Under the pieces are notes generated by a model. It worked only from the letters and a program-made list of their open reading frames with translations. It did not search any database and was not told where the DNA came from. Shown here piece after piece: positions 1,408-34,582 of a stretch of DNA of 64,000 bases. Origin of the DNA: an uncultured Acidimicrobiaceae bacterium (lineage in GTDB: Bacteria; Actinomycetota; Acidimicrobiia; Acidimicrobiales; Bog-793); the NCBI GenBank assembly GCA_963801185.1, contig CAWDDW010000001.1, forward strand, positions 112,928 through 176,927, in the 5' to 3' direction. Made by a program: the position numbers and the translations under genes. Numbering within the stretch: position 1 is the stretch's first letter; every line of letters begins with the position of its first letter.

Positions 1408-4400
1408 GCTGGATCACCCCGCCGGCTGGTCAGGGCGGCTCGCCGTCGCGCTCCTCGGTCCGCTGCGTCCGCCGAGCTGAGCTGGGCATTGCCGTTTGTG
1501 CTGGGTTCGCCGGCCGAGCCCAGATTCGCCCCCGGCGCGAGCCAGAACACGATCTCAGCCAGGTGGGCTCCGAGCGTGCGAGCGGTCGGGTAGCGGAAAA
1601 TGTCAGTGAGAGCCAGCGGAGCCGCGGTCTGCTCACAGAGCTCCCGGAAGACCTTGACGGCCAGGAGCGAGTGCCCGCCTATGTCGAAGAAGTTGTCGTC
1701 GCGTCCCACGGAGCGCTCGAGGACTTCGGACCATGCGGCTGCCACAATGTCTTCTGCCGCCTGAGAGCTAGCGGTCGCCGTGCCACGGCCGCCAGTGCCC
1801 GGAGAAACACTTGCGGCGGGTGCTGGGACGGCGGCGTTCGTGCGATCGAGGCGGAGTCTCGGCGAGAGGGCTGCCCGGTCGATCTTGCCGTTCGGCGTCA
1901 GCGGGAAAGCCTCCACCACGACGATGCGCGACGGAACAATGGCCTCGGGCAGTGCGGACCTAGCATGCTCCCTGAGGGCCTCTGCCGAGATCGCCTCGCC
2001 GTCGCGGGTGACGACGTAGCCCTCGAGGAGCGTCGAGGCACCCGTCCCGACGGTTCGCGCGACCGCGCGGACAACCGCGGGGTGAGTTTCGAGGACAGCC
2101 TCGATCTCGCCCAGCTCGACACGGTGGCCACGGAGCTTGATCTGGTTGTCGATCCGGCCGTGGAAGTGGACGAGCCCATCGTCGTCGACCCTCGCCAGGT
2201 CGCCTGTGGCGTAGCAACGACCAAGCCCTGGCGGGGTGACGAAGCGAGCAGCAGTGAGGTCATCGCGCCCGAGATAGCCGCGGCTCACACCGGCGCCGCC
2301 GATGTGGAGCTCGCCGAGCACGCCGACGGGACACTGCACGCCCTTGGCATCAAGGACGTGCACTTTGGTGTTCGCGACGGGTCGTCCGATCGGTACCGGG
2401 CCGTCGTGGTCGGCGGGTATCTCGTGAACGAGTGACCAGATCGTGGTCTCGGTCGGGCCGTACATGTTCGTAATCCGTCCGGGCATGACGCGTCGCAGCT
2501 CGGCTGCCAGCGTCGAGGGCAATTCTTCGCCACCAACGAAGAGGTGCCGCAGCGGCGACAGGGCCGCCCGGTCGGCGGCGTCGGCCAGCAGCAGGGTCGC
2601 TAGCGACGGGGTGCACTGAAGATGGGTGACCTTGTGACGGGTGATGAGCGACGAGATCGACTCTGGCTCGGACTCGGTCCGTGAACCCGAGGCGGCGAAA
2701 CGTTCGCGCGCCATGTTCCTCAGCTCCGCGATGCGCTCGAATCCTGCCACCGCCCGATCGTGATCGACGCCGAAGTCGACGAGGCAGGCGATCTCGTCCA
2801 CTCCCGCAGTGACCATCTGTACCACCAGCTCCATCGCGTCCTCGGGGGAGCCGAACAGCCCGGCGGTGCCCAGGTAGCGGTCGGCGGCCGCGTCGAGCAG
2901 CTGATCGAGCTCGCTCGGTGAGAGCGACCGGAACACCTCGTCGGCGTCTGCACCGCCACCTCGTAGCGTGGGGAACGAGGACGCCATGTCCTTCAGGAGG
3001 GACGTTGCCGATGCAAGGTACGTCTTGAACGGCTCCCGGGCAGCGCCGTGAGCCGTTTCGCGATCCGCGTCGAGGTAGGTGTGCACCATCAAGGTGACCC
3101 GGCCCTCGCCCGAGTGTCCGGCAGCCTGCCTAGCAGCCCGATAGGAGGCGATCTTGGCCGTGAGTTGCTCGATCGATTGCCCGAGGAGGTGGGTGAGGAG
3201 GTTGCAGCCCAATCGACCCGCCAATTCGAACGACTCGGCGCTGCCCACGGTGGTCAACCAGAGCGGCACCTGGTCCTGCACGGGCCGGGGAAGCGTCTGG
3301 ACGTCGACGTCGCCCTTCGGGCCGGCGAACGCAACATGCTCGCCGGCCCACAGCCGTCGCACGAGCTGAATGTTTTCGACAAGACGGCTCTTGGAGTCGG
3401 CGTACGCGTCCGGATTGAGGACGAAGTCATTCGGCTGCCACCCAGAGGCCATGGCCATTCCGACCCGGCCATTCGACAGGTTGTCGACGACGGACCAGTC
3501 CTCTGTGACGGTGATCGGCGAGTGAAGCGGTAATACGACGCTGCCGGCGCGGATCGCCACCCGCTCGGTGATGGCGGCGATAGCCGCCCCGGTGATCGCC
3601 GGGTTGGGGTAGATGCCGCCGAAAGCGTGGAAGTGGCGCTCCGGCGTCCAGATCGCTTCGAATCCATTGCGGTCGGCAAAGCGAGCCCCGTCCATCAGCA
3701 GCCGATAGCCGACGTCACCGTCGGCCTCCGCGCTGGCGAAGTAGAAGAGGCTGAACGTGGGCCTCGACCCGGCCACCGAGCGACCTGGTGCCTCCACGAC
3801 GCCTTGGCGGGAGTCGCCTCGTACGACGACCTGGAAACCCCGGGTCAACGTCCAGAGGAGCTCGAGGATCGAGATGTCAAACGAGAGGCTCGTGACTGCG
3901 AGCCAGACCCCGGGTGGGTCGTGGCCGATCACCTCGTCCATCGCCGCGAAGAAGTTGATCACGTTGCGATGCTCGACCATCACCCCCTTCGGCCGACCCG
4001 TCGACCCCGAGGTGTAGATGACATAGGCGAGGTCCTCCGCTGTGGCTGGTGCTGCCGCGTCGCGTGCCGGCAGGCCGACCGCGAGCGGTGGTAGCTGGTC
4101 GCGAGGATCGACGACGGGGACGCCCGGTGGGAGCCACGATGCCGGCTGCGTAGCGATCACGGCGGCAAGTCCGGCGTCCGCGGCCATGAGACGGAGGCGT
4201 TCGGTCGGATATGCAGGATCGAGCGGGACATATGCGGCACCGCGCGCCAGCACAGCCAGCACTGCAGGTACGAGATGCTCGTCGCGGCCGAGGGCGATTC
4301 CGACGAGATCTCCGCGCCGGACTCCACGCGCAGCGAGGAGCCGGGCGAGCTTCTCGGTGCGGTTGCGGAGGTCCCCGTAGGTGAGCGTGGTGCCGCCTGC

Positions 4401-4862
4401 GGTGACGGCTGGCGCGTTCGGAGTCGCCGCAGCTTGCCGTGCGAAGGCCATGGCGACCGTGTCGCGCTCGTCGAAGTCTCGAGACGTGTCGTTCACCTTC
4501 TCGAAGATGTCGGCATCTGGCGGTCCGATGAGCGGTACACGCCAGACGGATTCGCCAACGCCGGTGGCGACGGCCGCGAGCACACCTCTCAGCTGTGCTG
4601 CGGCACGCTCCAGCGCCGCTTCCGACATTGACCCGGTCGCGGCGCTGAGCACAATGCCACTGTCAGCCACCTCGAGATGCAACGGAGTACTCGGCTCGGG
4701 CGTGACAGCTCGGCATCCGGAGAGCCCGCGTTCGTCGTCGATGGCCACGGCGCCTCGGATGAAACGCCCGCGGAGCTCCGGGTCACGAGCCACCAGGTCG
4801 GCGAGCCAGGGCCCGTCACCCATAGCTGCCTCGAGGGCAGTTCTAGCTGAGCGCACGGCCAC
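1404..4862 (-). CDS. NRPS-type module: adenylation domain interrupted by a luciferase-like monooxygenase, then a peptidyl carrier domain (A-LLM-PCP)
   Basis: 1152-aa ORF. Adenylation cores: LTYGDL, LAYVIYTSGSTGRPKG, FDISILE, NMYGPTETT, GELHIGGAGVSRGY, YATGDL, GRIDNQIKLRGHRVELGEIE, NGKIDR. Carrier motif FFDIGGHSLLAV lies near the C-terminus. No complete condensation or thioesterase domain was recognised. Confidence 0.9.
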   Translation of the reverse strand: MAVRSARTALEAAMGDGPWLADLVARDPELRGRFIRGAVAIDDERGLSGCRAVTPEPSTPLHLEVADSGIVLSAATGSMSEAALERAAAQLRGVLAAVATGVGESVWRVPLIGPPDADIFEKVNDTSRDFDERDTVAMAFARQAAATPNAPAVTAGGTTLTYGDLRNRTEKLARLLAARGVRRGDLVGIALGRDEHLVPAVLAVLARGAAYVPLDPAYPTERLRLMAADAGLAAVIATQPASWLPPGVPVVDPRDQLPPLAVGLPARDAAAPATAEDLAYVIYTSGSTGRPKGVMVEHRNVINFFAAMDEVIGHDPPGVWLAVTSLSFDISILELLWTLTRGFQVVVRGDSRQGVVEAPGRSVAGSRPTFSLFYFASAEADGDVGYRLLMDGARFADRNGFEAIWTPERHFHAFGGIYPNPAITGAAIAAITERVAIRAGSVVLPLHSPITVTEDWSVVDNLSNGRVGMAMASGWQPNDFVLNPDAYADSKSRLVENIQLVRRLWAGEHVAFAGPKGDVDVQTLPRPVQDQVPLWLTTVGSAESFELAGRLGCNLLTHLLGQSIEQLTAKIASYRAARQAAGHSGEGRVTLMVHTYLDADRETAHGAAREPFKTYLASATSLLKDMASSFPTLRGGGADADEVFRSLSPSELDQLLDAAADRYLGTAGLFGSPEDAMELVVQMVTAGVDEIACLVDFGVDHDRAVAGFERIAELRNMARERFAASGSRTESEPESISSLITRHKVTHLQCTPSLATLLLADAADRAALSPLRHLFVGGEELPSTLAAELRRVMPGRITNMYGPTETTIWSLVHEIPADHDGPVPIGRPVANTKVHVLDAKGVQCPVGVLGELHIGGAGVSRGYLGRDDLTAARFVTPPGLGRCYATGDLARVDDDGLVHFHGRIDNQIKLRGHRVELGEIEAVLETHPAVVRAVARTVGTGASTLLEGYVVTRDGEAISAEALREHARSALPEAIVPSRIVVVEAFPLTPNGKIDRAALSPRLRLDRTNAAVPAPAASVSPGTGGRGTATASSQAAEDIVAAAWSEVLERSVGRDDNFFDIGGHSLLAVKVFRELCEQTAAPLALTDIFRYPTARTLGAHLAEIVFWLAPGANLGSAGEPSTNGNAQLSSADAADRGARRRAALTSRRGDPA
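2709..3758 (-). other. Embedded luciferase-like (FMN-type) monooxygenase domain inside the adenylation domain
   Basis: About residues 369-718 of the 1152-aa product (FSLFYFASAEADG...WTPERHFHAFGGIYPNP...LVDFGVDHDR) lie between cores FDISILE (A4) and NMYGPTETT (A5). Boundaries are approximate. Confidence 0.75.
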
Positions 4863-4870
4863 TTCGAAAT

Positions 4871-6161
4871 TTAGTACTCGGGATCTTCCGGCAGCTCCAC
4901 GATCGCGATCGGGCGCCGGACCAGGGGGGCCGTAGCAGCCACGACCGCTAGCACCGGGGCATCTGCGACCTCCAGCGGCACGACAAGCGAGCCCGTCAAC
5001 CGTGCAACCCAGACCGCGGCGGCGGCGGCGATCTCCACCAAAGAGTGAGACTCCTCGGTGACGACAACCTGTCGTCGTCCCAGCGCTCCCAAGCCGGACA
5101 CGCTCCCGACCTCGACTACTGGTACGTGTCGCAGCCGACGCATGACGGAGGCCTCCGCTCGCGCCATGCTCGGGTCCTGATCCTCGAGGGCGGCGAGGAA
5201 CCGATCGGGAGGAGGATCCAAGACGGGCGCCACCGGGCCGTCGAGTTGGGCGAAGACGTCGTCGGCCGGGACAGGTACGCCGTTGGCATCGCTGAGGCCC
5301 TCAAGGAGGAGATCACCATCGGCCATGGTGATGGTCAGGCCCCTCTCACTCAGCGCGATCGCGCCCACCGGCGCGGCACTGTCAGAAGGGAGGCTGCGAG
5401 CAGCGCCGACGACCCAGAACCGTTTGCCTGCCACGAGCCGGACCGAACCCATGGGATTACGAATCCGAGCACCGAGGTCGAGGGCGCGAACCGCCCGCGC
5501 CATCTCCCTGGCCGTTCGGCGTCGATCGACGATCGTCTCGCTGCGGGGCCGGTCGTACCGTCCCCGGTAAAAGCGGGGGCGGTCGGGCTGCCGCGTGGTC
5601 ACAACCTCACCGCGAACGACGGCCGTTACGACAGCAGGAAACGACTCGAGGGCCGCGGCGAAGCACTTGGTGTTCAGCGAGTAGGCCGTCTCGTCCGCGC
5701 TCAGCTCTACCTCGGCAGTGGCCACGATGTCACCGGCGTCCACCTCTTCAGTTAGGAGGTGCCAAGTGACCGCATGGGTGACGGCGCCCGACAACAGCGC
5801 CCAACTCGTGACGTTCCGTCCCGCGAGGTCAGGTAGAGGACCGTCATGGAAGTTCAGCGCGAGCCTCGAAGCGTCGGAGGCTCTCGTCGGGGACGACCCG
5901 GAAATTACCGACGCTGAAGAGCAGTTCGGCCTCGAAGTGGCCGATAGCTGCCGCGAGACCCGCGGCCGGTGAGCGAACAGCTATGCCCCGAGCGGCGGCC
6001 CACGACGCGGCGGCTGGGTGGTCGGATATGACCCCGACGACCTCCAGCCCGCCGCTCAGCGCCAGGTCGGCGCACTCGAGCACGAGCGCGCGGTCGCCGA
6101 CGAAGACTGTCCTCCGCTTGCGGGATCGAATCACTACGGTCCCGGACCGGTTGCTCATCAA
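4871..6161 (-). pseudogene. Formyltransferase-like protein with C-terminal extension; frame broken near 5847-5875 (pseudogene or 1-nt sequence error)
   Basis: ORF 5844..6161 encodes the N-terminal half (...LLFSVGNFRVVPDESLRRFEAR). The catalytic core ALNFHDGPLPDLAGRNVTSWALLSGAVTHAVTWHLLTEEVDAGDIV (N-x-H ... D pattern) continues in the frame of ORF 4871..5794. Skipping one base after ...FEAR restores LNFHDGPLP. Only 8 nt separate its stop from the NRPS start. Confidence 0.7.
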
Positions 6162-6410
6162 CTACACCCCCGCGAGCACAGACCCTCGCACGATCCGCGT
6201 ATCACGACGTAAGGCTATCCGCCCGGGCAACACGAGGTTTCTGGCACCGCACCGATAAGAGGCGATCAGTCGCGAGTTCGACAACGCTCCCGCTCGGCTG
6301 CCATTGACAACAGTTCGCTGGCGACGCCTCAGGCAGCGCACCTTCTCGAACACTCTCGCCCATACCCCACAGTGCGCATCGACCTGGCCGAGCTTCCTCG
6401 GCAGCGCCTC

Positions 6411-8306
6411 TTACGGCCCTTCGGGCCACAAGTCGCTCTCGATCGTTGACAGTGTCTGCCCCGCGAACACCGACCGGCACCAGACTTCGGCCGACCAGAG
6501 TCGGACGCGCAACGCGCCCTGAGCAGACTCCAGGACATCTGCAAACTCACGGGTCGGGAAACCAAACACATCCCTGAATACGCCGTCGGACAAAAATAGG
6601 GGGTTCGCGGCGTCCTCGATCCACGCGCCAGCATCGAACATCATGCCGTAGATCTTCGGTCGGTGGGCGATCTTCCAAGGCAGCAGACCTCGAGCGACGT
6701 CGCGCAGGATGCCCTTGCTCCAAGGGCTCACCCTGAACTCGAGAGGCAGGTTCAGAGCGAGTTCGACGACACGAGGATCGAGAAACGGCACTCGTGCCTC
6801 GACGGAGACTTGCATCATATTCTTGTCCATGCGGCTCAACAGGTGCGAAAGGGTGAAGTCAAGGTCGCGCAACAGCTTCGTCTCGAGCGCAGCCCTCGGT
6901 CCAGCGTGGTGCATGTATGCGGACTCGATTTCCGCCTTGATTGCGTCGTCACCGGCTATCCCATCACCGGTTGTCTCGTCACCCGTAGGGCTGTTCGCAC
7001 CCGATCCGTTGCGGCCTCTCGGAATACGTACGGCGGCTAGCTTTTTCAGCCGCCTGTCTACCGCCCGGAGAGTAGCTAGTGGGTGTCCGAGCATGACCGG
7101 TTCCAGGGTGCGGATCGCCCGCTGGCTCGGCGACAAGAATGTGGCTAAGGGGACAGTTCGCCCGCCGATGTACCCGCCGAACAACTCGTCCGCCCCCTCC
7201 CCCGTCAGAAGGACCTTGATACCACGGCCACGGGCACGCTCGGCCATTTGCGATATGGTCACGGAGCTTGCAGTTGCCAACGGAGCGCCGAAGTGAAGAG
7301 TTGCTGCCACGAAGCCGCTCCTCCAGCCCGATTTCGTGACTTCGAACTGGTCAAGTTCGATTCCCAACGCGTCGGCTACGCGCTGCGCAGCTGGGCCTTC
7401 GTCGAAAGCCGGGTCGCCCTTGTACCTGGCCCCGAAGGCGACGAGATCACTCTTGACCTCCACGGCCAACACGGTGATGAGACTCGAGTCCACTCCGCCG
7501 GAGAGCAAGGTCCCCATCGGAACATCGCCGAGTAGAGCATCGTGGACGGCGGAGCGAAGAGTGCCCTCCAGCTCGGAGACGAGGGTCGAGCGGGTACTCG
7601 CTTGCAACTGCCTTTGGCGTTCCGCGTCTACATGGCTCGTGGCGGAGTCCCAGCGGTGGCTTGTGACCCGTGAAGAGTCGAGTGCGATCTCCAACCAGGT
7701 ACCCGGTGAGAGCCTGCGAATGCCGCTTAGAAGCGTGTCGTCTCCTGGATAGCACGACCAATCGAGGATGCTTCTCCAACCGTCCGTCCGCGCTGATGGT
7801 TTGATGCCGGCCGCCAACAGCGCATCGGGTTCGCTTGCGAACCAGATGGCATCATCCGCGCAGGCTATATACAGAGGCTTGATACCGAAACGGTCACGGG
7901 CCAGCAGCAGGCGCCCAGCCGTGAGGTCGAGCGCGGCGAACGCGAACTGACCGTTGAGACGCGGAAGCACACTTGGACCCCAATGGGCGAGCGCATGCAA
8001 GAGTGTGTCGGTGTCTCCGTCGGACACGAAGGACTCGCTGTCAAATTCACTGCGGATCGCCTTGTGGTTGAAGATCTCTCCATTGAATGAGAGCCACCAG
8101 GCTCCGCTGGGGTGACGCATCGGCTGGCGCGCTCGCTCGCTTACGTCGACGATCGCAAGGCGCGTATGGACAAGCCCGACGTTGTCGAGTATCTCCACGC
8201 CCGACCCGTCAGGACCACGATGCGTGAGGGCGTCACGCATCGCCGCGAGTCGCTCAGGCGAGGGGCTCTGGCCGCGAGGAACCACGCAGCCGCCGATACC
8301 GCACAT
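6411..8306 (-). CDS. Asparagine synthase (glutamine-hydrolysing) family amidotransferase
   Basis: 631-aa ORF. N-terminal MCGIGG supplies the Cys2 Ntn glutaminase nucleophile. PP-loop LLSGGVDSSLI is in the synthetase half. Confidence 0.9.
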   Translation of the reverse strand: MCGIGGCVVPRGQSPSPERLAAMRDALTHRGPDGSGVEILDNVGLVHTRLAIVDVSERARQPMRHPSGAWWLSFNGEIFNHKAIRSEFDSESFVSDGDTDTLLHALAHWGPSVLPRLNGQFAFAALDLTAGRLLLARDRFGIKPLYIACADDAIWFASEPDALLAAGIKPSARTDGWRSILDWSCYPGDDTLLSGIRRLSPGTWLEIALDSSRVTSHRWDSATSHVDAERQRQLQASTRSTLVSELEGTLRSAVHDALLGDVPMGTLLSGGVDSSLITVLAVEVKSDLVAFGARYKGDPAFDEGPAAQRVADALGIELDQFEVTKSGWRSGFVAATLHFGAPLATASSVTISQMAERARGRGIKVLLTGEGADELFGGYIGGRTVPLATFLSPSQRAIRTLEPVMLGHPLATLRAVDRRLKKLAAVRIPRGRNGSGANSPTGDETTGDGIAGDDAIKAEIESAYMHHAGPRAALETKLLRDLDFTLSHLLSRMDKNMMQVSVEARVPFLDPRVVELALNLPLEFRVSPWSKGILRDVARGLLPWKIAHRPKIYGMMFDAGAWIEDAANPLFLSDGVFRDVFGFPTREFADVLESAQGALRVRLWSAEVWCRSVFAGQTLSTIESDLWPEGP

Positions 8307-8398
8307 GGGTCGAGGATAGTGGAACCGTCACCCAGCCTGAGACAGGGTCACAACCCGCTCTCGGCCTATAAGCCCGGGCTGGCGGACGACTCCAAACC

Positions 8399-10054
8399 TC
8401 ATCGTGAGCGACGCTCGGTCACAAGCGGCGTCAGTCGTTCTGCCAGCGCTTCGCGCCCGCTGAAGCTCAGCATGTTGTGGTCGAGTTCGTCCATACGGAT
8501 CACCTGAAGGCGAGCGCCCTCGCCGCTTGAGCCAAGGACGGACAGTGCTCGCATGCCGTTCTCGCCGGCGGCGACGGAGAGGCTCTCGTGGTCCTCGGCA
8601 GACAGGATCAGCGTCGTGTCCACATGGCGGTCTGAGAGCCACGTGAGGAGCGCGACCGGATCCCCGCTTGCGGGTTCCTTGCTGCTCTCGTCCCCGGTGA
8701 GCCTGACGGTGTTCCAATAGATCTGGTTGACCAGATGAACGGTCTGCACGCCTAGGGTACCGGCGGCCATCGCTGCAACCCATGCACCGGAGCACAGGCC
8801 CACGAATGTGACGGCTTCGGGGGCGTCCGGTGATAGCTCCAGGGCCGCGCTCACCGCATCCTCGACGAACTCTGGTGCATAGAGCGATGGCCTCTCTGAC
8901 GCCGCCAGGCTGTCTCCGATGCCCCTCAAGTCGAAGCGCAGCGCTCGGATTCCTCGGCAAGCCCAGCTTCTGGCGAGCTCAACCCACTGGCGGGAAGGAC
9001 CGATGTGATGTTCGAAGAACGGGTTGAGGAATACCACAGTGAGGCGGCTTTCTCCGCCGGCCTCGGTGAGCATGCCGAAGAGCCGATTGGCTCCGATGCT
9101 GATCGCGCGCTCGACGACGGGGCGCTCGTCTGGGGTCTTCCCGACAACGGCGAAGGGGCGGTCGTCTGGCGCGAGCGAGTGAGCGTCTGTGGGCAAGGTG
9201 TCAGACAGAAAGGATGTGATGGTCCCGAGGGTGGCTTGACTGAAGACCGCGCCCGATGGCGCCGTCTCGAGAAGCTGTCGCTGGCCGGGCACTTCGAGAT
9301 GTGTGACGAGCGGGTTGGAGATCAACTGCTCGAGCAATGGGGTCGGGGCCTCATCGACCCGGGTGAGCACCATGGTGGGCATCGTCGTATCGATTTGGTC
9401 AGGTAGCTCAAGGGCCGTGAGCCGCGCTGATGTCTCGGGAGAAAAGCATGCTCCCGGTATCTCGGTCCAATCAGGAGGCGCCTGCGCACCGCCGATGGCG
9501 CGGACCGTCAGCCTTTGCAGGAGGTATTGCTCACGCAGAAAGGTCGATCCGCTCGCGCAAGGGTCCCACAGGACGAGCGCTTCGAATCGACCAAGCTCAC
9601 TGGCGACACGCGCTGCCAGCGTGGCTCCTATCCGCAACCCCAGCAGGGCGATTCGCTGCTCGCCGGCATCGCTGGCGAAGCGGATGGCGGCTTTGATGCT
9701 CCACAGCCACGACTCGATGAGGTCGGTGTACGTACCTTGGTCGCCAGAGTCGCCGGTTCCGCAGTAGTCGAAACGGAGCGCGGCGAAGCCGGCACCCGCG
9801 AGTTGGTCCGCCAAGGTTCGGAGCGCTTCATAGCTAGCGTCGTGCTCGCGGCCAACCGGCGGACAGATCACTATTGTGGCTCTGGTGTTCTCGTCGGGCG
9901 GTCGGTGAAGCCAGCCGAAAAGCGGCGTTCCTCGGTCTTCGAACCACGTCGGCACGGCGAGCCCTTGCATGGTTGTGGCCAGCCGCTGGGTGTTGAGCGG
10001 GAGTGGTTCGGTCAACGAGGGAGAGGCGATCGGAGATTCATCGGTGGCCCGCAT
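8399..10054 (-). CDS. Fused tandem alpha/beta-hydrolase-fold protein (two hydrolase-like halves)
   Basis: 551-aa ORF. Half 1: PLFGWLHRPP..IVICPPVGREH..LRFDYCGTGDSGD..LLGLRIGATLAA. Half 2: VVFLNPFFEHH..LRFDLRGIGDSLA..FVGLCSGAWVAA. The start is uncertain: ATG 10054 abuts the divergent PPTase start, and the internal ATG at 9970 (MQGLAVPTWF) is an alternative. Confidence 0.7.
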   Translation of the reverse strand: MRATDESPIASPSLTEPLPLNTQRLATTMQGLAVPTWFEDRGTPLFGWLHRPPDENTRATIVICPPVGREHDASYEALRTLADQLAGAGFAALRFDYCGTGDSGDQGTYTDLIESWLWSIKAAIRFASDAGEQRIALLGLRIGATLAARVASELGRFEALVLWDPCASGSTFLREQYLLQRLTVRAIGGAQAPPDWTEIPGACFSPETSARLTALELPDQIDTTMPTMVLTRVDEAPTPLLEQLISNPLVTHLEVPGQRQLLETAPSGAVFSQATLGTITSFLSDTLPTDAHSLAPDDRPFAVVGKTPDERPVVERAISIGANRLFGMLTEAGGESRLTVVFLNPFFEHHIGPSRQWVELARSWACRGIRALRFDLRGIGDSLAASERPSLYAPEFVEDAVSAALELSPDAPEAVTFVGLCSGAWVAAMAAGTLGVQTVHLVNQIYWNTVRLTGDESSKEPASGDPVALLTWLSDRHVDTTLILSAEDHESLSVAAGENGMRALSVLGSSGEGARLQVIRMDELDHNMLSFSGREALAERLTPLVTERRSR

Positions 10055-10784
10055 GACAACTTATGATCATCCCATGATGTTGGCGGAGCGGGTGAGCCCG
10101 AGGGTCGACCTTCGAGCCGGCGAAGTCCATGTCTTTATAGTAGGCGTCGATGAGTTTCCCGAACATCTCTCTCCGTTGTCAGAGCGGATCGATCCACCTT
10201 CGGGACGGCGCACAACGGATCCTCGTCACCGGGCGGTCGTTGCGGGCAACGTTGCCCTCCGCAGGATGATCTCTTCCGTCCTCGGCATGCCTGCCGAGCT
10301 CGTTCGGATCGATCGGACATGTCCCCATTGCGGTGACTGCCGGCACGGCAAACCTAAGGTGATCGACCCCGTGGCTGGCGAGCTCGACTACAGCATCTCG
10401 TACTCGGGTGCGCACGCGTTGGTCGCACTCGCTCGGGGTTGCCAGGTTGGCGTTGACATAGAAGCGGTAGGAGACGACGATCGCTTGTCGCGCTGGTGTT
10501 TCGCAGGAGAGGAGAGAGTGCTCCTCACAGGGCTGCACTCGCATGAGCGGCACGAGCAAACCGCTCGGTCGTGGGTCCGCAAAGAGTCGGTTGCCAAGGC
10601 GTGTGGCCTCGGGTTGTTCATGCCGATGAGCCGAATCGTGGCGACCGGCGACCGGTCCGGCTGGAAGTTGCCGTCGCGCGACTGGCAGGTGGTGGACATC
10701 GACGTCCCGACAGGTCACGTGGCAGCCGTGGCCTGTGACGACCCGGTGGCGTCGGTGACGATCAGCAAGTGGACGTGGACGTGA
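10053..10784 (+). CDS. 4'-phosphopantetheinyl transferase, Sfp type
   Basis: Track ORF 9969..10784. Motifs: HGKPKV, SISYSGAHALVA, VGVDIE, WVRKESVAKACG. ATG 10053 (MTTYDHP) or 10074/10077 is preferred over the track start. Confidence 0.8.
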   Translation: MTTYDHPMMLAERVSPRVDLRAGEVHVFIVGVDEFPEHLSPLSERIDPPSGRRTTDPRHRAVVAGNVALRRMISSVLGMPAELVRIDRTCPHCGDCRHGKPKVIDPVAGELDYSISYSGAHALVALARGCQVGVDIEAVGDDDRLSRWCFAGEERVLLTGLHSHERHEQTARSWVRKESVAKACGLGLFMPMSRIVATGDRSGWKLPSRDWQVVDIDVPTGHVAAVACDDPVASVTISKWTWT

Positions 10785-10802
10785 GGGACCGGAGCGGCTC
10801 GG

Positions 10803-11048
10803 ATGTCTGATAGAGATGCGATCCTGCAGCTTCTCTCTCAGGAGACCGAGCTCGACCCCGCGGCTTTCGGGGCGGAGTGGGCGCTCATAGATCTCGGCAT
10901 CTCATCATTCGCCGTGATGAAGCTCCTTGTGGCGCTCGAAACGCGCTTTGACATTGAGTTCTCCGACGAGCAGATGGAAGAGATCGTGAGTTCGCCGGTC
11001 TCGGAGCTGCCGACGGTCGTCGAGCGAGCGCTCGCCGCCAAGCCCTGA
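10803..11048 (+). CDS. Stand-alone acyl carrier protein (81 aa)
   Basis: Small acidic helical ORF with the carrier-protein attachment region LIDLGISSFAVMKLLVALE. It sits 18 nt after the PPTase and 3 nt before the ligase. Confidence 0.7.
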   Translation: MSDRDAILQLLSQETELDPAAFGAEWALIDLGISSFAVMKLLVALETRFDIEFSDEQMEEIVSSPVSELPTVVERALAAKP

Positions 11049-11051
11049 GGC

Positions 11052-12569
11052 ATGGACGTCCTCGAGCTCGTACTCGAGCAAGCCAGGGCTCACCCGGACC
11101 GACCCGCGGCGAAGGACCTCACGACCGATCTGAGCTTCGCCGAGCTCGCGGGCGCTGTCGCAAGGCTGGCTGCCGGGCTGTTCGAACATGGCGTGCGCGC
11201 GGGGGATCGTGTCGGCCTCCATTTGGCGAACTCTGTCGACTTCCTCGTGTCGACGCTTTCGTGCATGTGGGTGGGGGCGATCTTCGTGCCTCTCGCACAT
11301 GCAGATCCAGTCTCGAGGATCGAGGAGATCATCACCGATTCCGAACCGGCCGTGGTCCTCGCACTCCCCGGCTCTCGGGGCACAACGGCGACGGAGATTC
11401 CCTATGCAGGCCGTCCCGTGGCCTCACCCCACGCTCTCTCCCGGCCGGGCGCCGCGCCGCCGCCTGCCGCCAGCGAGGAGAGCCGCCCGGCGTACTGCAT
11501 CTACACCTCTGGCACGACCGGCTCTCCAAAGGGCGTGCTCATCGATCACAAGGCCTTCCTCGCTGCAGTTCTCTCCGCTGCTGAGATACTCGGTCTCGAC
11601 GATCGGACTCGGGCGCTGTGCGTGTCGCCGTTTCATTTCGATGGGTCGTACGGCACCTTGTTCCCTGTGCCCGTAACGGGCGGGTCCCTAGTGATACCGC
11701 GTCGGGAGTCGTTGATGCTGCCGCGGCTCTTCTTCAAGGTCGTCGCTGACGAGGTGGTCAACCATACGAGCCTCTCACCGACCTACCTTCGGCTCCTGCT
11801 CTCGAGCCCTCACCTGTCCGACCTCAATCGGACGTCACTCCGGACGATGGCGGTTGGCGGAGAGGCCCTCCTGCCCGCCGACCTCCTGGCATTGTGGGAC
11901 GCTGTCCCGAATCTGCGCGTCTTCAATCGGTACGGCCCCACGGAGACGACGATCGCCGTCACCACCCACGAGGTGACGGCGGAGATGGTCATGGACGGCG
12001 GCCTCGTTCCGATCGGTCGTCCGCACCCGGGCGTTCGCTTCCACATCCTCGACGCCGAAGGCCACGTCGTCGTAGGACCCCGCGAGGTGGGAGAGCTATA
12101 CATCGGCGGTTCGCAGCTAATGACCGGGTACTGGGGCGATCCGAACCTCACGGCGGAGGTGATGCGGACTGACGCAGTTCCCGGAGAGCTCTGCTACAGG
12201 ACTCGTGACCTCGTGTTCCGCGACGAAGCCGGTAGCTACTTCTATGTGGGCCGAGCCGACCGCGTGGTGAAGCGCAGCGGCGTGAGGATCTCGCTCGACG
12301 AGATGGCTGGAGCCTTGAGTAACCTTGATAGCGTCTCGGCGGCTCACTGCGTCAGCTACGACCGCTCCGGTGACCTCGCGATAGCGGCTTTCGTTGTGGC
12401 GACGACGGCTGTCAGTGCCCCGGAGCTTCGTCACGCGGCCCGGGAGATCCTTCCAGCGACAATGCTGCCAGACGTGATCGAAATCGTCGAAGGCCTCCCT
12501 CTGACCGGCTCGAACAAGGTCGATGAGAACATGCTGCTCGCGGCGGCCGGGCTCGGAGAGCGGGAGTAG
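11052..12569 (+). CDS. Stand-alone AMP-forming acyl-CoA/acyl-ACP ligase (ANL adenylating enzyme)
   Basis: 505-aa ORF. Motifs: AYCIYTSGTTGSPKGVLIDH, NRYGPTETT, GELYIGGSQLMTGY, YRTRDL, GRADRVVKRSGVRISLDEM, SNKVD. Confidence 0.9.
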   Translation: MDVLELVLEQARAHPDRPAAKDLTTDLSFAELAGAVARLAAGLFEHGVRAGDRVGLHLANSVDFLVSTLSCMWVGAIFVPLAHADPVSRIEEIITDSEPAVVLALPGSRGTTATEIPYAGRPVASPHALSRPGAAPPPAASEESRPAYCIYTSGTTGSPKGVLIDHKAFLAAVLSAAEILGLDDRTRALCVSPFHFDGSYGTLFPVPVTGGSLVIPRRESLMLPRLFFKVVADEVVNHTSLSPTYLRLLLSSPHLSDLNRTSLRTMAVGGEALLPADLLALWDAVPNLRVFNRYGPTETTIAVTTHEVTAEMVMDGGLVPIGRPHPGVRFHILDAEGHVVVGPREVGELYIGGSQLMTGYWGDPNLTAEVMRTDAVPGELCYRTRDLVFRDEAGSYFYVGRADRVVKRSGVRISLDEMAGALSNLDSVSAAHCVSYDRSGDLAIAAFVVATTAVSAPELRHAAREILPATMLPDVIEIVEGLPLTGSNKVDENMLLAAAGLGERE

Positions 12570-13209
12570 CCGACGTCGTCAGGGAGTTAAGCCGCCGCTG
12601 TGAGAGCATCCTCGTCAGCGCTTCGGCGTGAGCCCGGAGAGCCTGGACATCACACCGACGAGCCGGCCGGCCCAAATGGGAGCGAAGGCACCGGAAATGG
12701 GCTCGACCAGCGAGTTTGTAGCTGTTCGGGCGCATGGTGCTGTCGGTCGCGACGAGACCAGGCACCCTCTCGGCGGCTCGCTCTGGGGGTCCGCGCCTCG
12801 ACAGGATCGGGATGATACGTTCAGACCGATGTCGCCGCTCGACAGCCGCGATCCTTCCTGCCAAGCGTGGTCGACGACGCTCTGCCCGCATCCCGATGAG
12901 CCCGGCGGGTGCACCTGTCAAAGCTGCCTTGATGCGCCGATCCCGCAGCCCGCGGAGAGCGTCCGCTACGAGGAGAGCTGGCGTCCGCCCAGGTCGCGCG
13001 TCTGGCGCTTGCTCAAACCCCGATCTGATGCCTTTGCCAAGCAGATCGACGCATACCTCGATCTCTTAGCAGCGGAGTCTGCCCCGTTCAGCGGGCACCG
13101 CAGTCCCGAGGAGGCTGCGGAGCGACGTAGGAGCTGCGAGCGGGCCGGCGCTCGGCAGGTGCACAGAGTGAGCTGACGGCGGTCCCTCGCTCCGGGTGCC
13201 CCGGTCGCG

Positions 13210-14988
13210 TCATCCGAGCAGCTCATCGACACACCGCTGAGCGTCGAGGCATACGCGCATCCTGCTCTTCGGCGAGGGAAGGTAATGCGTGAAGTAGCGC
13301 ACGCCCTCGGTCAAGGCCCCGAGTATCCAGAGCCGTGGCTGGACCTGCCCACTGTGGTCGATCGGATGGAAGTCCTCGGAGAGCGCCACACTGCCGACCG
13401 GAGTCTCGCCGTACTTGAACTGCTGGAGCCGACCCTGCCGGTAGAGCTTCGTCAAGAGGGTCGACGAGGAGCGATGCAAAGTCGGATCTTCGAGATACCC
13501 CTGGATGAGCAGGTCGACCTGAGATGAGTAGGGGGTGTCGAGCTCCCTCGAGCGGATGGTCCGTCTTGCATGGGAAGTGGTCAGTCTCGGTCCTGGGCCG
13601 AAGGGGACTCTCACGACTCCAGCATCCATGAGCGCGAGCAGCTGCTGAGAGCGGACAGCGGGGGGTCCAGCCACCAGACGGCTCACTTTGCTCCGTATGT
13701 TGGAGTGGAAGTCGAGGTAGGACTCGAGCGAAAGCCCGCCGAACTCAATGACCGAGCGCATCGCGTCGCGTTGGAAGCGGAGAACCTCGTAAGCAGCCTT
13801 CACCGCACTGGAGGGTCCCTTGAGTGCCTCTTCCAGATCGGCTTCGATCATGGCGTACACACGGTCCTCGTAGTCCTTTGAGGAGACGAAACCCTCCTCG
13901 GGAGCGAAGAACTGACGGTTCGCGTCAAAGGAGCCGTAGCGTGCCGCGTACGGGGCGACGGCCGTCTCGAAGTCAGCGCCGATGGATGACTGCTCGAGGC
14001 GGGCGCGTACCTCCTTGGCAGCCTCAGGCCCAGCTACCAAAGAGGCGGAATGGATGTAGTACCGGGCCTGCATCTCGGCGAGAATGAGAGGTAGGAGCAT
14101 CGTTCTTACATCGACTTGGCCGGCGCCAGTTCGAATCGCTTTGACCGCCTCGGGGGTGCAGATGACTGGCGCGTATTCATCAGTCTCGTCAAGGGCTCCG
14201 ACGGCTTTGGCGCAGTAAGGAAAGCCGCTCCGGGAGAACAGATAAATGAGCGGCTCACGACCGCTCGCGTGATACCGAAGCCGATCGTTGCGCTCGGCAA
14301 ATGATCCGCCGTTGCCGAGCGTGAGCGCTGTGATCACATCGGTTGCCACGAGGCCCATGCCGACGACTCCGACGGAGGCCGTCGACGGGACACGTTCGAG
14401 GTAATTGGTAACCGGGTAGGGCCTCACGAGGTGTTCAGGATGATCGAGGTTCTCTGTGTGACCAGTTGTCAGCACGACGTGGTCCACGGCAATGACCTCG
14501 CCGTTGGCGAGCAACACGCGCTCGCTCCCGTCCGGTTGCCTCTCGATGTCGACCGCGAGGGCTCGGTGCTCGATGACCTCGAGGGACCACGGCGCCTCTT
14601 CCAAGAGAGTCTGGTAGAACCATTGGAGATAGGCGCCCATGACGCGCCTGGGCAGATAATCGTGCGGCGAGATCTCCCGTCCGGACGGCCCGACTCTGCA
14701 GTGGTCACCATTCCAGCGATAGCCAACCCGCCTTGCCCACTCATACAGGCCGATTCCGTAACGCGGCGGTGTTCCCTCGTAGCTCCAGGGGTAAAGCGAC
14801 AGCTGGCCGCACGGGGTGTTCAGCAGCAAGTAGTCCGGCTGATCCAACACGTACACACCTGGGCCGGCCGGACCAACCTCTATTACGTGGACGCGGGTGG
14901 CGTCGGGTCGAGTGCGCGCGGCATCGACAAGGCGCTCCAGCACGCACAAACCCCATGATCCGAGACCGACAAGAGCTACCTCTGTCAC
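13210..14988 (-). CDS. Large FAD/NAD(P)-binding domain protein (about 590 aa)
   Basis: Track ORF 13210..15135. The dinucleotide-binding stretch VALVGLGSWGLCVLERL follows directly after the internal GTG at 14988, which I take as the likelier start. A second Rossmann-like stretch is SVGVVGMGLVATDVI. The family call rests on fold pattern only. Confidence 0.6.
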   Translation of the reverse strand: MTEVALVGLGSWGLCVLERLVDAARTRPDATRVHVIEVGPAGPGVYVLDQPDYLLLNTPCGQLSLYPWSYEGTPPRYGIGLYEWARRVGYRWNGDHCRVGPSGREISPHDYLPRRVMGAYLQWFYQTLLEEAPWSLEVIEHRALAVDIERQPDGSERVLLANGEVIAVDHVVLTTGHTENLDHPEHLVRPYPVTNYLERVPSTASVGVVGMGLVATDVITALTLGNGGSFAERNDRLRYHASGREPLIYLFSRSGFPYCAKAVGALDETDEYAPVICTPEAVKAIRTGAGQVDVRTMLLPLILAEMQARYYIHSASLVAGPEAAKEVRARLEQSSIGADFETAVAPYAARYGSFDANRQFFAPEEGFVSSKDYEDRVYAMIEADLEEALKGPSSAVKAAYEVLRFQRDAMRSVIEFGGLSLESYLDFHSNIRSKVSRLVAGPPAVRSQQLLALMDAGVVRVPFGPGPRLTTSHARRTIRSRELDTPYSSQVDLLIQGYLEDPTLHRSSSTLLTKLYRQGRLQQFKYGETPVGSVALSEDFHPIDHSGQVQPRLWILGALTEGVRYFTHYLPSPKSRMRVCLDAQRCVDELLG

Positions 14989-15188
14989 GGCGCCCAACTG
15001 TCGGATCGAATAGTAGCTGCCCCCAGCCCCACCCCTACAAGCTACCGCGGCTGAGCCAACCCGTCGCACGCTGCTGGTTTGGCCTCCCTCGAGCGTCGAT
15101 TCCGAACAGGCGGCTCGGGGTTCCGGCCCCATCACGCCGGGCCGCGCTCGATTGAGACGGTAGTCGTAGCTCTCTATGCTGGTCTCGG

Positions 15189-15237
15189 GTCATCGACTTC
15201 GAGCAGCGGAGGTGTGTTATCCCAGTCGTCATCGACT
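15189..15237. repeat. 10-nt direct repeat GTCATCGACT (15189-15198 and 15228-15237) in the divergent intergenic region between the FAD protein gene and metA-like gene
   Basis: Read directly from the sequence. The two exact copies are 39 nt apart start-to-start and lie 70-120 nt upstream of GTG 15309. Confidence 0.5.
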
Positions 15238-15308
15238 CGCCGGATTCCGCGCCTTCCTCTGGGAGCGGGTCCCCGCGGAGCGCTCGTGGCCGCAGTACCG
15301 ATACCCCG

Positions 15309-16292
15309 GTGCTCGAGATCGCGCTAGTGAACAACATGCCGGATGGGGCTTTTGCTGAAACGGAGCGACAGTTCACGCGCTTGCTCGAGGACGCGTCCGA
15401 CGACCTCGAGTTGCGTGTGGGCCTCTACAGCCTGCCGGGGCTCCCGCGAAGCGAGGATACGGCTGGTTACATCTCGTCTCGCTACTACCCGCTCGAGCGA
15501 CTGTTTGGAATGCAGGCCGATGCCGTGATCGTGACGGGCACCGAGCCGCTCGCAGAGCACCTCACAGCCGAGCCGTACTGGGAGGCATTGACCGGTTTGA
15601 TCAACTGGGCGGCGGAATCCACCGTCTCTGCCGTCCTCTCGTGCTTGGCAGCCCATGCCGCCGTTCTGCTCTTCGACGGGATCGAGCGCGAGCCACTTGC
15701 CGAGAAGTGCTCCGGCGTCTTCTCTCACGAAGTGGTCACGTCGCACACGCTCGTCGAGGGGATGGCGGGCCCGATCTTCGTGCCGCACTCGCGGCTTAAC
15801 GACGTGCCCTACCGCTCGCTAAGTGAGCACGGTTATACGAGCTTCCTCAGTTCACACGAGCTCGACTGGACCGTGCTTGCACGAGAGCGCGGCAACTGTC
15901 TCTTCATGTTCGTCCAGGGCCACCCCGAGTACTCGACCTCGAGCCTATTGCGGGAGTACCGGCGCGATCTGCATCGGTTCATCCGAGGAGAACGTGACCA
16001 TTCTCCGCCCGTGCCGAGCAACTACCTCGATGAGGAAGGCGAGCGGTTGCTGCGGGAGTTCGCCGCGGCAACACGGACACAACCGGGGTCGGCCGACGTG
16101 ATGGAAAGGTTTCCTTTCGATCACGTCAGGCAGCACGTGGTAAATACCTGGCGGGCACCGGGCAAGCGATTGTACGCGAACTGGATCAAAGAAATCCTGC
16201 GTCGCAAGCATCACAGGAAAACAGGTCGCGTCAGTGCCGCGGGCGAGCAGCCGGTGAGCGAAGAACAAGGAACGAGGTCTGCTGGTGCGTGA
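15309..16292 (+). CDS. metA: Homoserine O-acyltransferase (MetA/HTS family), short N-terminus
   Basis: LEIALVNNMPDGAFAETERQFTRLL resembles the MetA ILNLMP...TE.QF.RLL region. Active-site Cys lies in VLSCLAAHAAV. The His/Glu motif is VQGHPEYS. GTG start with no obvious SD. Confidence 0.8.
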   Translation: MLEIALVNNMPDGAFAETERQFTRLLEDASDDLELRVGLYSLPGLPRSEDTAGYISSRYYPLERLFGMQADAVIVTGTEPLAEHLTAEPYWEALTGLINWAAESTVSAVLSCLAAHAAVLLFDGIEREPLAEKCSGVFSHEVVTSHTLVEGMAGPIFVPHSRLNDVPYRSLSEHGYTSFLSSHELDWTVLARERGNCLFMFVQGHPEYSTSSLLREYRRDLHRFIRGERDHSPPVPSNYLDEEGERLLREFAAATRTQPGSADVMERFPFDHVRQHVVNTWRAPGKRLYANWIKEILRRKHHRKTGRVSAAGEQPVSEEQGTRSAGA

Positions 16293-17580: not shown

Positions 17581-17659
17581 GCAGCGGAAAACCCGGACTT
17601 GCCGCAATTCGAAGCGGTACCATTTTCCGTGATCGGGTGAATGCCCAGTTGGAGGAGAT

Positions 17660-18073
17660 TTGGTGGATCGAGCGAGCCAGTGCGATGGCAACTACGGCCG
17701 CGGGCTATCGGTAGGTGTCGACATGATCTCTGTGTCGGAGGTGTCGGACGCGATCCGAGAGTTCGGCGATCTTTATGTCAACCGTGTGTTCACAAGCCAC
17801 GAGATCGACTGCTCGACCGGAGACGAGTTGGCGACGGCACGTCACTTCGCGGCTTGTTTTGCCGCGAAGGAGGCGACCATCAAGGTCCTCGGTGCGGACG
17901 GAGAGGTGCCCGGCTGGGGTTCGATAGAGGTGAAGCGCGAGGCGGGGGGACGTACGTCCCTTCGCTTGACCGGACTGGCCGCCGAGCTCGCTGAGCGCGC
18001 TCGACTCAAGACGTTCGCCGTGTCTATGACGCACCGGGGCGACCTGGCTGCAGCGGTGGTGATCGCAAGGTGA
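17660..18073 (+). CDS. acpS: Holo-[acyl-carrier-protein] synthase (AcpS-type PPTase)
   Basis: 137 aa. Motifs: LSVGVDMISVSEV, FAAKEATIKVLG, SMTHRGDLAAAVVIA. GGAGGAG lies 5-7 nt upstream of the TTG 17660 / GTG 17663 start. Confidence 0.8.
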   Translation: MVDRASQCDGNYGRGLSVGVDMISVSEVSDAIREFGDLYVNRVFTSHEIDCSTGDELATARHFAACFAAKEATIKVLGADGEVPGWGSIEVKREAGGRTSLRLTGLAAELAERARLKTFAVSMTHRGDLAAAVVIAR

Positions 18074-18363
18074 CCTCACTGGACGAGCAATCGATCAGCC
18101 AGGAGGTCCGCCGCGTTCTGGACCAGTACGGGCGGCTCTCGGTGCCGATGGCCGAACTCGCTGACTCCGACGAGCTTTACCGCGTGGGCATGACCTCTCA
18201 CGCGGCCGTCAGCGTCATGCTGGCGCTCGAGGCCGCGTTCAAGGTGCAGTTCCCCGATGCCATGCTGCGGCAGAACACCTTTTCGTCGGTGGACGCAATC
18301 GCGGCCGCTGTCGGCCTGCTGATCAAGTTCCAAACAGGCGATGGGCTTGACCCTCTTCCCTGA
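18070..18363 (+). CDS. Dedicated carrier protein (97 aa)
   Basis: Attachment region LYRVGMTSHAAVSVMLALE. GTGA overlap with acpS. Its 3' end overlaps the ligase start. Confidence 0.7.
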   Translation: MTSLDEQSISQEVRRVLDQYGRLSVPMAELADSDELYRVGMTSHAAVSVMLALEAAFKVQFPDAMLRQNTFSSVDAIAAAVGLLIKFQTGDGLDPLP

Positions 18364-28885: not shown

Positions 28886-29012
28886 GCGAGTGGCCGCGGC
28901 AAGGGTCGCGCAACGTCGCGACTGATGAGCCGCTTTGTCCCGGTGGTAGCGTCTAAGTCCGCCGAGGAGCGACGTGCTCGCTCTGTTGAATCCCTGAAGG
29001 AGGTCCCTGCCC

Positions 29013-34497: not shown

Positions 34498-34582
34498 CGA
34501 CCCCCTCGTCCGTTCAGGGACTTGCGGCGCAAGCTGGCAACACGGGCGCCTCTCATGGCCGGACATTGATGCCGAGCGCGCC

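Follow-up and report, generated by a model that had tools for sequence, protein, structure and literature searches.

We analysed a 64-kb window of an Acidimicrobiales genome, the whole stretch of DNA to which all coordinates below refer, around a gene for a fused double alpha/beta hydrolase. A preliminary description had likened this gene and its neighbours, encoding an adenylate-forming ligase, an acyl carrier protein (ACP), a 4'-phosphopantetheinyl transferase (PPTase) and an AsnB-type amidotransferase, to the accessory set of proteobacterial exosortase A (XrtA) loci, in which two separate hydrolases, hydr1_PEP and hydr2_PEP, occur. We find that the hydrolase is part of a widespread, uncharacterised system linked to the aminoacylation of carrier proteins and to exopolysaccharide (EPS) loci. 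The cassette is related to the exosortase-A-associated ligase/ACP/hydrolase set and is its analogue in function, but does not belong to it. Whether the whole of 1404-19255 is a carrier-protein aminoacyl-transfer cluster around the hydr2/hydr1-type double hydrolase, whose Cys domain would move aminoacyl groups to an acceptor, we regard as evenly balanced.

Profile searches placed the five open reading frames (ORFs) of the originally described cassette at the same positions, with the same broad families; the A domain listed last, of nonribosomal peptide synthetase (NRPS) type, is the ligase of that description:

6411-8306, minus strand: AsnB-type glutamine-dependent amidotransferase (631 aa; Asn_synthase and GATase_7 domains; N-terminal MCGI nucleophile, SGGVDSS PP-loop).
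8399-10054, minus strand: fused double alpha/beta hydrolase (551-aa ORF; Hydrolase_4 at residues 57-170, Abhydrolase_6 at residues 340-455).
9969-10784, plus strand: Sfp/HetI-type PPTase (271 aa; Pfam ACPS 41.4 bits, HetI model 48.4 bits), likewise in agreement with the preliminary description.
10803-11048, plus strand: carrier protein ACP1 (81 aa; PP-binding 34.5 bits; DLGISS phosphopantetheine attachment site).
11052-12569, plus strand: stand-alone NRPS-type adenylation (A) domain (505 aa; AMP-binding 254 bits).

The fusion of two alpha/beta-hydrolase halves in one protein was borne out, and its 551 aa proved to be only the longest possible ORF. An exact-sequence search with the hydrolase returned no match; a database copy of 538 aa, from a metagenome-assembled genome (MAG) of Acidimicrobiales (phylum Actinomycetota) and ~100% identical with at least one residue different, starts 13 codons later; the true start is probably at 10015 or 9970, and the alignment of homologues suggests that it may be Met29. 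The divergent PPTase gene probably starts near 10053, so the two genes need not overlap. On the same strand as the hydrolase gene, AsnB lies 92 bp downstream.

All four exosortase-A-specific models scored below their cutoffs: hydr2_PEP (TIGR03101) gave 113.2 bits for the whole hydrolase and 78.0 bits for its N half alone (cutoff 202.75), hydr1_PEP (TIGR03100) 74.3 bits for the whole hydrolase (cutoff 168.45), ligase_PEP_1 (TIGR03098) 185.7 bits for the stand-alone ligase (cutoff 592.35) and eps_aminotran_1 (TIGR03108) 255.7 bits for AsnB, over its first 380 residues only (cutoff 816.9). The two PEP families were still the best matches of the hydrolase in the NCBIfam ranking, with E-values of 1.5e-32 (hydr2_PEP) and 9.4e-21 (hydr1_PEP), the next family following at 5.9e-07. 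Profile scans and a crude tail-motif search found no exosortase and no PEP-CTERM tail among the scanned ORFs of the window, as the preliminary description had also reported. Because the models stay under their cutoffs and the window shows neither an exosortase nor a PEP-CTERM-like tail, membership of the exosortase A set is unsupported. The literature search on XrtA accessory genes returned almost nothing, and the 2006 PEP-CTERM paper does not mention them.

The proposed likeness to the exosortase set thus held in a specific sense for the hydrolase, whose best matches are the PEP models and which shares their Arg and Cys elbows (below), and only at broad-family level for the ligase and AsnB, since the ligase scores better with an A-domain model and AsnB passes a generic model and recurs in a single related locus. 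The ligase reached 314.3 bits with the NRPS model AA-adenyl-dom (TIGR01733), 3 bits under the cutoff of 317.4, carries FD..., NRYGPTE and GSNK motifs, and has the A domain of LgrA module 2 as its best PDB match (319 bits). AsnB, with its MCGI and SGGVDSS motifs, scored 359.7 bits with asn_synth_AEB (TIGR01536), above the cutoff of 267.1. An AsnB homologue was found within 10 kb of the hydrolase in 1 of 80 related loci (loci with fused-hydrolase relatives from other genomes), and AsnB was rejected as a conserved component given its absence from the other 79.

The N half of the hydrolase is best matched by hydr2_PEP and has the nucleophile elbow GLRIG (residues 139-143 of the 551-aa ORF), with Arg at the nucleophile position; the C half is weakly hydr1_PEP-like and has the elbow GLCSG (residues 419-423), with Cys at that position. 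The elbow preference of the TIGR03100 and TIGR03101 models was read by scoring point variants of each half against both (bits by residue at the nucleophile position):

N half against hydr2_PEP: Arg 78.0, Cys 74.1, Ser 74.8, Ala 74.6.
C half against hydr2_PEP: Arg 42.1, Cys 38.2, Ser 38.9, Ala 38.7.
C half against hydr1_PEP: Arg 33.3, Cys 40.3, Ser 34.2, Ala 34.4.
N half against hydr1_PEP: Arg 37.6, Cys 44.7, Ser 38.7, Ala 38.9.

In both backgrounds hydr2_PEP favours Arg by 3-4 bits over Ser, Cys or Ala, and hydr1_PEP favours Cys by 6-7 bits over Ser, Arg or Ala. The exosortase-associated pair therefore shares the Arg and Cys elbows, which makes the relationship specific and not generic; by sequence, the window protein is a fused relative of that hydrolase pair.

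The same pattern extends across phyla. In every relative tested (Actinomycetota, Azospirillum, Burkholderia gladioli), hydr2_PEP and then hydr1_PEP were the top families, in N-then-C order, and they were likewise the top matches of a split gene pair in Variovorax. All 22 aligned homologues have Cys408 and His513, and at least 90% of them have Arg128 and Asp512; GxRxG, GxCxG and DH are kept together in four of five proteobacterial and Tsukamurella proteins checked, no GxRxG being found in the Tsukamurella protein. The alignment, read by eye, shows no N-terminal hydrophobic signal or membrane segment. An AlphaFold (AF2) model of the hydrolase is confident and compact (predicted local distance difference test, pLDDT, 87.4; predicted TM-score, pTM, 0.90), and a structure search found no solved structure with two such domains, its matches being generic single-domain esterases, lipases and thioesterases.

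Several observations concern the form and naming of this family. In Variovorax paradoxus (locus L010, 11998-13753) the hydr2-like and hydr1-like halves are two genes overlapping by 8 bp, and Variovorax and other Comamonadaceae have an abundance of stand-alone hydr1-like proteins of ~310 aa, so that both the fused and the split form are found beyond the exosortase-labelled families. A metagenomic locus, L001, encodes two paralogous fused hydr2/hydr1-type hydrolases of 603 and 520 aa (6242-8053 and 10001-11563), one of which comes after an ATP-grasp gene. Relatives (P0001, P0082, P0107) bear the database name 'serine aminopeptidase domain-containing protein', taken from Pfam Hydrolase_4, which is misleading because their nucleophile positions hold Arg and Cys and no serine.

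The cassette turned out to be larger than first described. Beyond an enzyme trio at 13210-17580 (see below), it includes a second PPTase, a second carrier and a ligase related to aminoacyl-tRNA synthetases (aaRS), at 17660-19255:

17660-18073, plus strand: AcpS-type holo-carrier-protein synthase, the second PPTase of the cluster (TIGR00556 66.7 bits, cutoff 45.35).
18070-18363, plus strand: carrier protein ACP2, of the aminoacyl-carrier-protein family partnering aaRS-like ligases (NF005480 91.4 bits, cutoff 72; PDB 4h2w_C and Atu2571, 57 bits).
18341-19255, plus strand: amino acid--[acyl-carrier-protein] ligase, a truncated seryl-tRNA-synthetase homologue (NF005479 377.7 bits, cutoff 357).

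This aaRS-like ligase matches the Bll0957 structures (PDB 3mey and 4h2w, 205-212 bits), and the start of its gene is overlapped by the 3' end of the ACP2 gene by 23 bp.

A pattern scan detected fused-hydrolase relatives in at least 569 species genomes; 80 loci were fetched, 56 of them with full flanks, and their content was determined by tblastn with the window proteins within 10 kb of the hydrolase. The closest genome loci to the window hydrolase are those of Acidimicrobiia. An aaRS-like ligase lies within the 10-kb limit in 38 of the 80 loci and in 26 of the 56 with full flanks (46%), against a chance expectation well under 1% (a rough estimate, for a gene present about once per genome). It is usually accompanied by an ACP2-type carrier and often by AcpS, and in ~17 loci it stands directly upstream of the hydrolase on the same strand. 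A recurring operon, consisting of an ACP, an acyl-CoA-dehydrogenase-like gene, the ligase, (DUF1839, the glycoside hydrolase family GH2) and the hydrolase, was found in Acidimicrobiia, Nocardioides, Gemmatimonadota, Acidobacteriota, Myxococcales and Azospirillum, with shorter forms in Rhodococcus and others. A collection of plasmids and chromids independent of the 80 genome loci gave a similar picture, at least 35 of 60 listed ligase-bearing records also having the hydrolase, 3.4-22 kb away (hit lists compared by hand).

As a separate observation, 21 Streptomyces and 11 Bacillus plasmid records encode homologues of the aaRS-like ligase, and none of them is among the records bearing the double hydrolase. 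The ligase-hydrolase link is therefore frequent and not obligatory, and the ligases of these plasmids may serve different pathways.

The sub-cassette of the preliminary description recurs as well, an A domain and carrier divergent from the hydrolase being found in the closest homologous loci, L001, L006 and L014. Hydrolases of this type keep company with three kinds of loader, namely the aaRS-like ligase, an NRPS A domain (the window, L001 and L006), and full NRPS genes with a PPTase (Variovorax).

Among 112 immediate neighbours of the hydrolase, the commonest recognisable Pfam families are glycosyltransferases (15 GT1/GT4, 8 GT2), and GH2 enzymes, flippases and a priming transferase are also represented. 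The gene lies within Wzx/Wzy-type EPS clusters in Rhodococcus, Mycolicibacterium and B. gladioli. A Tsukamurella EPS locus has, amid glycosyltransferases and a flippase, just a PPTase, an ACP, an aaRS-like ligase and the hydrolase. The Variovorax split pair follows two NRPS genes and a PPTase and directly precedes an EPS export/synthesis locus, and in L001 and L006 the A-ACP-hydrolase arrangement adjoins glycosyltransferases and a Wzy-type gene. A match to the window hydrolase in B. cenocepacia lies in an EPS locus of the same composition as the published Bep cluster and, judging from that composition, is probably Bcam1334, which is annotated as a TIGR03100-like hydrolase of unknown role in the Wza/Wzc/flippase/glycosyltransferase locus Bcam1330-Bcam1341 (PMC3584217).

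The remaining genes that bear on a mechanism are as follows:

1404-4862, minus strand: NRPS module made up of an A domain, with a MupA/Atu3671-type luciferase-like monooxygenase inserted in it, and a peptidyl carrier protein (PCP) after it (TIGR04020 452.8 bits; AA-adenyl-dom 408.3 bits).
4871-5794 (C part) and 5844-6161 (N part), minus strand: formyltransferase-like gene in two pieces, the frame being broken near 5794-5850.
13210-15135, minus strand: FAD/NAD(P)-binding protein, a full-length homologue of L-aspartate N-hydroxylase of CreE/FzmM type (NAD_binding_9; PDB 8cp2 177.5 bits, E 4e-51; PMC10404684).
15309-16292, plus strand: homoserine O-acyltransferase of the MetA/HTS family (MetA model 340.4 bits against a cutoff of 358).
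16285-17580, plus strand: O-acetylhomoserine sulfhydrylase/aminocarboxypropyltransferase-type enzyme dependent on pyridoxal phosphate (PLP), MetY-like (TIGR01326 579.5 bits, cutoff 495.1).

The gene at 1404-4862 had been taken for an NRPS-polyketide synthase (PKS) hybrid; the NRPS module was confirmed, and the PKS identity was rejected, as profile scans detected no PKS domain. No condensation or thioesterase domain was detected on it either. The formyltransferase-like gene, which is either a pseudogene or an assembly error, ends 9 bp ahead of the module, and the two may represent a degraded or mis-assembled F-A-PCP initiation module. The loading inventory of the window thus comprises three carrier-loading enzymes, three carriers and two priming enzymes.

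Specificity codes of both A domains were derived by hand and are less certain. That of the monooxygenase-interrupted domain, DILQFGMIWK, equals the glycine code at 8 of 10 positions. Glycine was considered for the stand-alone A domain too, since its best PDB match, A domain 2 of LgrA, is, as we take it, glycine-specific; it was not assigned because the code DGGSAGRIAK does not fit that of glycine. The alpha-amino-acid Asp235 is present in this domain, and Arg322 with the small pocket residues may point to a long acidic substrate.

As a trio, the flavin N-hydroxylase, the homoserine O-acyltransferase and the MetY-like enzyme accompany the double hydrolase in many Acidimicrobiia loci (L001, L006, L008, L017, L024, L031, L042, L056 and L057), often plus an ATP-grasp enzyme; in L001 and L006 they occur together with the A-ACP-hydrolase arrangement. 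No nitrosuccinate-lyase partner was seen.

Models above curated cutoffs or close structural homologues identify the loading enzymes, the carriers and the priming enzymes. In the mechanism that we propose, the two PPTases would prime the carrier proteins. The aaRS-like ligase would charge its cognate carrier ACP2, the stand-alone A domain would load ACP1 with an alpha-amino acid, and the A(monooxygenase)-PCP module would load glycine. Characterised homologues of the aaRS-like ligase charge their carrier with glycine or alanine. The Cys of the C half, with the C-terminal His, would accept the aminoacyl group from the aminoacyl-S-carrier protein as a thioester and then hand it to an acceptor nucleophile. 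Since Arg replaces its nucleophile, the N half is not expected to be a serine or cysteine hydrolase, and it may be a domain for docking or substrate binding that has no catalytic role. The acceptor would probably be a cytoplasmic EPS intermediate in most relatives, because the gene sits amid glycosyltransferase, flippase and polymerase genes. The A domain probably receives a non-standard amino acid made by the N-hydroxylase/HTS/MetY-like trio; that the trio yields an unusual amino acid by the logic of D-cycloserine biosynthesis, which combines an O-acyltransferase, a PLP replacement enzyme and an N-hydroxy nucleophile, is speculation by analogy. The AsnB-type enzyme probably amidates a free carboxylate and would be a local addition outside the conserved system.

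A transferase has been proposed for the aaRS-like ligases before. Iyer and Aravind (2010) suggested surface sugars as the acceptors to which the aaRS-like system would attach an amino acid (PMC2922099). The double hydrolase is a second, more widely linked transferase candidate for this system, at least in Actinomycetota. We further offer, as a conjecture that we hold less likely than not, that it is the missing downstream enzyme of the aaRS-like ligases, moving carrier-bound glycyl, alanyl or other aminoacyl groups onto EPS intermediates, and that the exosortase-A set, the aaRS-like operons and the NRPS-type cassette are three versions of one widespread glycan-aminoacylation machine, differing mainly in their loaders, which have been swapped non-orthologously.

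A number of points weigh against an aminoacyl-transfer role and against the kinship on which it builds. The C half alone is nearly tied between the two models (hydr1_PEP 40.3 vs hydr2_PEP 38.2 bits), and its assignment to hydr1 would derive largely from the Cys, and also from better-scoring relatives. The Arg/Cys preference of the true exosortase families comes indirectly, from model scores and not from their own sequences. No genuine exosortase-associated hydr1 or hydr2 sequence was among the matches of plasmid tblastn searches with the fused and the Variovorax hydr2-like proteins, which returned only generically named hydrolases, or of a protein search with the Variovorax hydr1-like protein, which returned 120 stand-alone homologues of Comamonadaceae type, none named exosortase-associated. 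The transferase role of the family is read only from residues and gene neighbourhood. Moreover, the transferase predicted by Iyer and Aravind was another protein, Atu2574, and their note says nothing of an alpha/beta hydrolase (PMC2922099); from its gene position we infer that Atu2574 belongs to the DUF1839 family, of which the window has no member. In about half of the related loci neither a ligase nor a carrier gene lies within 10 kb, and in these the hydrolase may draw on another donor; the aaRS-like ligase is 13-21 kb from the hydrolase in Burkholderia and 8 kb from it in the window. Finally, profile scans of the ORFs found no EPS or glycan genes adjacent to the cassette in the window, and the acceptor there may therefore be another carrier-bound amino acid. 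A small glycan locus ~17 kb from the cassette, at 36851-41257, encodes a GT2 glycosyltransferase, a PMT_2-type membrane glycosyltransferase and a GH26-like hydrolase; these nearest glycan genes are separated from it by housekeeping and defence genes.

The last of these points belongs equally to the alternative that survives best, and which we hold to be unlikely: an NRPS-like small-molecule pathway with no polysaccharide link, in which the hydrolase would shuttle or condense carrier-bound amino acids in the manner of SyrC or CmaE, or release the product, and in which AsnB and the monooxygenase-containing glycine module would tailor that product. In its favour, the genes for the hydrolase and AsnB, the formyltransferase-like gene and the A(monooxygenase)-PCP module share a strand and follow one another head to tail; the carrier-loading enzymes number three, and since the module shows no condensation or thioesterase domain, another enzyme must form and release bonds. 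The position of the Variovorax pair directly behind two NRPS genes and a PPTase suits such a pathway too, but that same block runs straight into the EPS export/synthesis locus. Against it, too, the relatives' hydrolase is usually in or beside glycosyltransferase, flippase and polymerase genes, and in the closest loci with the NRPS-type loader, L001 and L006, glycosyltransferases and a Wzy-type gene are at hand.

We consider improbable an ordinary hydrolytic role, in which the hydrolase would be a type II thioesterase that cleans mis-loaded carriers, or else a polysaccharide esterase or quality-control enzyme, and its adjacency to ligases would mean no more than housekeeping. Its fold is the generic alpha/beta-hydrolase fold, its nearest solved structures are esterases, lipases and thioesterases, many loci have no ligase within 10 kb, and a quality-control role was proposed for Bcam1334 by Fazli et al. 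(PMC3584217). However, one half lacks a nucleophile and the other has an invariant Cys in place of Ser, and this two-domain architecture is kept across phyla. If the hydrolase, as sole consumer of aminoacyl-ACP, did no more than hydrolyse it, the minimal locus of Tsukamurella would run a futile cycle, and the lack of a signal or membrane segment by eye speaks against action on a secreted polymer.

That the likeness is only one of broad families, with a coincidental gene order, is very improbable. Every specific cutoff was missed, and AMP-binding, PP-binding, hydrolase and AsnB genes are all common; for AsnB this explanation already holds true. For the hydrolase it is already contradicted by the wide gap in E-values to other hydrolase models (1.5e-32 and 9.4e-21 vs 5.9e-07), by the common Arg/Cys elbow residues, by the recurrence of the A-ACP-hydrolase arrangement in L001, L006 and L014, and by ligase linkage far above the estimated chance level. 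The XrtA accessory set also includes a carrier protein and a decarboxylase. Despite the similar parts list, the PEP models as best matches of the hydrolase and the shared elbow residues, a true exosortase A (XrtA/PEP-CTERM) accessory set that moved into an actinobacterium and had its hydrolases fused is the least probable explanation of all, extremely so, given that the four specific models fall far under their cutoffs, the ligase is of NRPS A-domain type, related loci do not conserve AsnB, the window shows no exosortase or PEP-CTERM tail, its sole decarboxylase (45417-46823, 33 kb away) falls in another Pfam family, OKR_DC_1, and at least 569 species genomes, from phyla in which the aaRS-like ligase is the partner, carry the fused family.

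Two further observations were made elsewhere in the window. A family-5 solute-binding protein at 28925-31154 is split over overlapping ORFs in different frames (28925-30286 and 29979-31154), which suggests a frameshift or assembly error. An OLD-family ATPase/TOPRIM nuclease gene (32215-34497) adjoins a gene with an Mrr-type restriction endonuclease domain (34583-35659), and 32215-35659 looks like a small defence island just past a rapZ-yvcK-gap-pgk-tpiA core block.

The exosortase-A-associated hydrolase, ligase and carrier genes, the aaRS-like ligases and the Bcam1334-like hydrolases have been bioinformatic or biochemical orphans for 15 to 20 years. Judged from sequence, one architecture, in which a domain with an Arg pseudo-nucleophile is joined to one with a Cys nucleophile, ties these orphan gene sets together, and the relationship of the cassette suggests what aaRS-like aminoacyl-carrier ligases are for. 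Their role becomes directly testable as the transfer of aminoacyl groups from carrier proteins to glycans or other acceptors, and Rhodococcus, Tsukamurella, Azospirillum and Burkholderia are tractable carriers of the system. If the proposal is true, it describes a cytoplasmic, Dlt-like route for the amino-acid decoration of surface polysaccharides, and it would correct the widespread 'serine aminopeptidase domain-containing protein' misannotation of a hydrolase family lacking an active-site serine.

Among known systems, the exosortase A accessory families (TIGR03100, TIGR03101, TIGR03098 and TIGR03108) are uncharacterised 'hypothetical equivalog' families of proteobacterial EPS loci. In common with the window or its relatives they have paired paralogous alpha/beta hydrolases with Arg and Cys elbows (by the preference of the models), a co-occurring adenylate-forming ligase and, in the relatives, the EPS context. 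They differ in that the window hydrolases are fused, hydr2 then hydr1, and score under the cutoffs; that an NRPS A domain and an aaRS-like ligase stand in place of ligase_PEP_1; that AsnB is generic; and that the host is an actinobacterium in whose window no exosortase, PEP-CTERM or associated decarboxylase was found.

Amino acid:[carrier protein] ligases are reportedly the subject of Mocibob et al. (2010, 2013), with Bll0957 and Bll6282 of Bradyrhizobium and Atu2573, with its carrier Atu2571, of Agrobacterium. The window ligase and carrier pass the curated models for these systems and match their solved structures, and relatives often place the ligase directly upstream of the fused hydrolase. 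The ligase loci fetched from Azospirillum, Acidimicrobiia and Gemmatimonadota have acyl-CoA-dehydrogenase-like, DUF1839 and GH2 genes, which the window lacks; extra in the window are AsnB, an Sfp-type PPTase and an NRPS A domain that has a carrier of its own. A 2022 review called the biological role of these ligases unknown (PMC9437257).

The Dlt system (DltA-DltC-DltB-DltD), which D-alanylates teichoic acids, follows the same logic of a stand-alone adenylating enzyme, a dedicated carrier and transfer to a surface glycopolymer. The window ligase, however, gave 220.5 bits with the DltA model (cutoff 559.85), no MBOAT (DltB) or DltD family was found among the scanned ORFs of the window, and the proposed transferase is a soluble Cys double hydrolase, so that transfer would be cytoplasmic. 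Bcam1334 is likewise a TIGR03100-like hydrolase inside an EPS locus, if the B. cenocepacia match is indeed this protein; unlike the adjacent ligases of many relatives, the Burkholderia aaRS-like ligase is 13-21 kb off.

The terminal modules of the myxothiazol and melithiazol synthetases hydroxylate glycine, and the module at 1404-4862 is similar in having a monooxygenase in its A domain and a glycine-like code, with no condensation or thioesterase domain detected. SyrC (syringomycin) and CmaE (coronamic acid), which along with the Dlt pathway are the nearest analogues in function to the proposed mechanism, are aminoacyltransferases of alpha/beta-hydrolase fold that use an active-site Cys to move an aminoacyl group from a carrier thioester to another acceptor. 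They are single-domain enzymes of NRPS pathways with no Arg-elbow partner domain; the window hydrolase has the alpha/beta-hydrolase fold, with an invariant Cys and His in its family, and is a candidate for similar chemistry.

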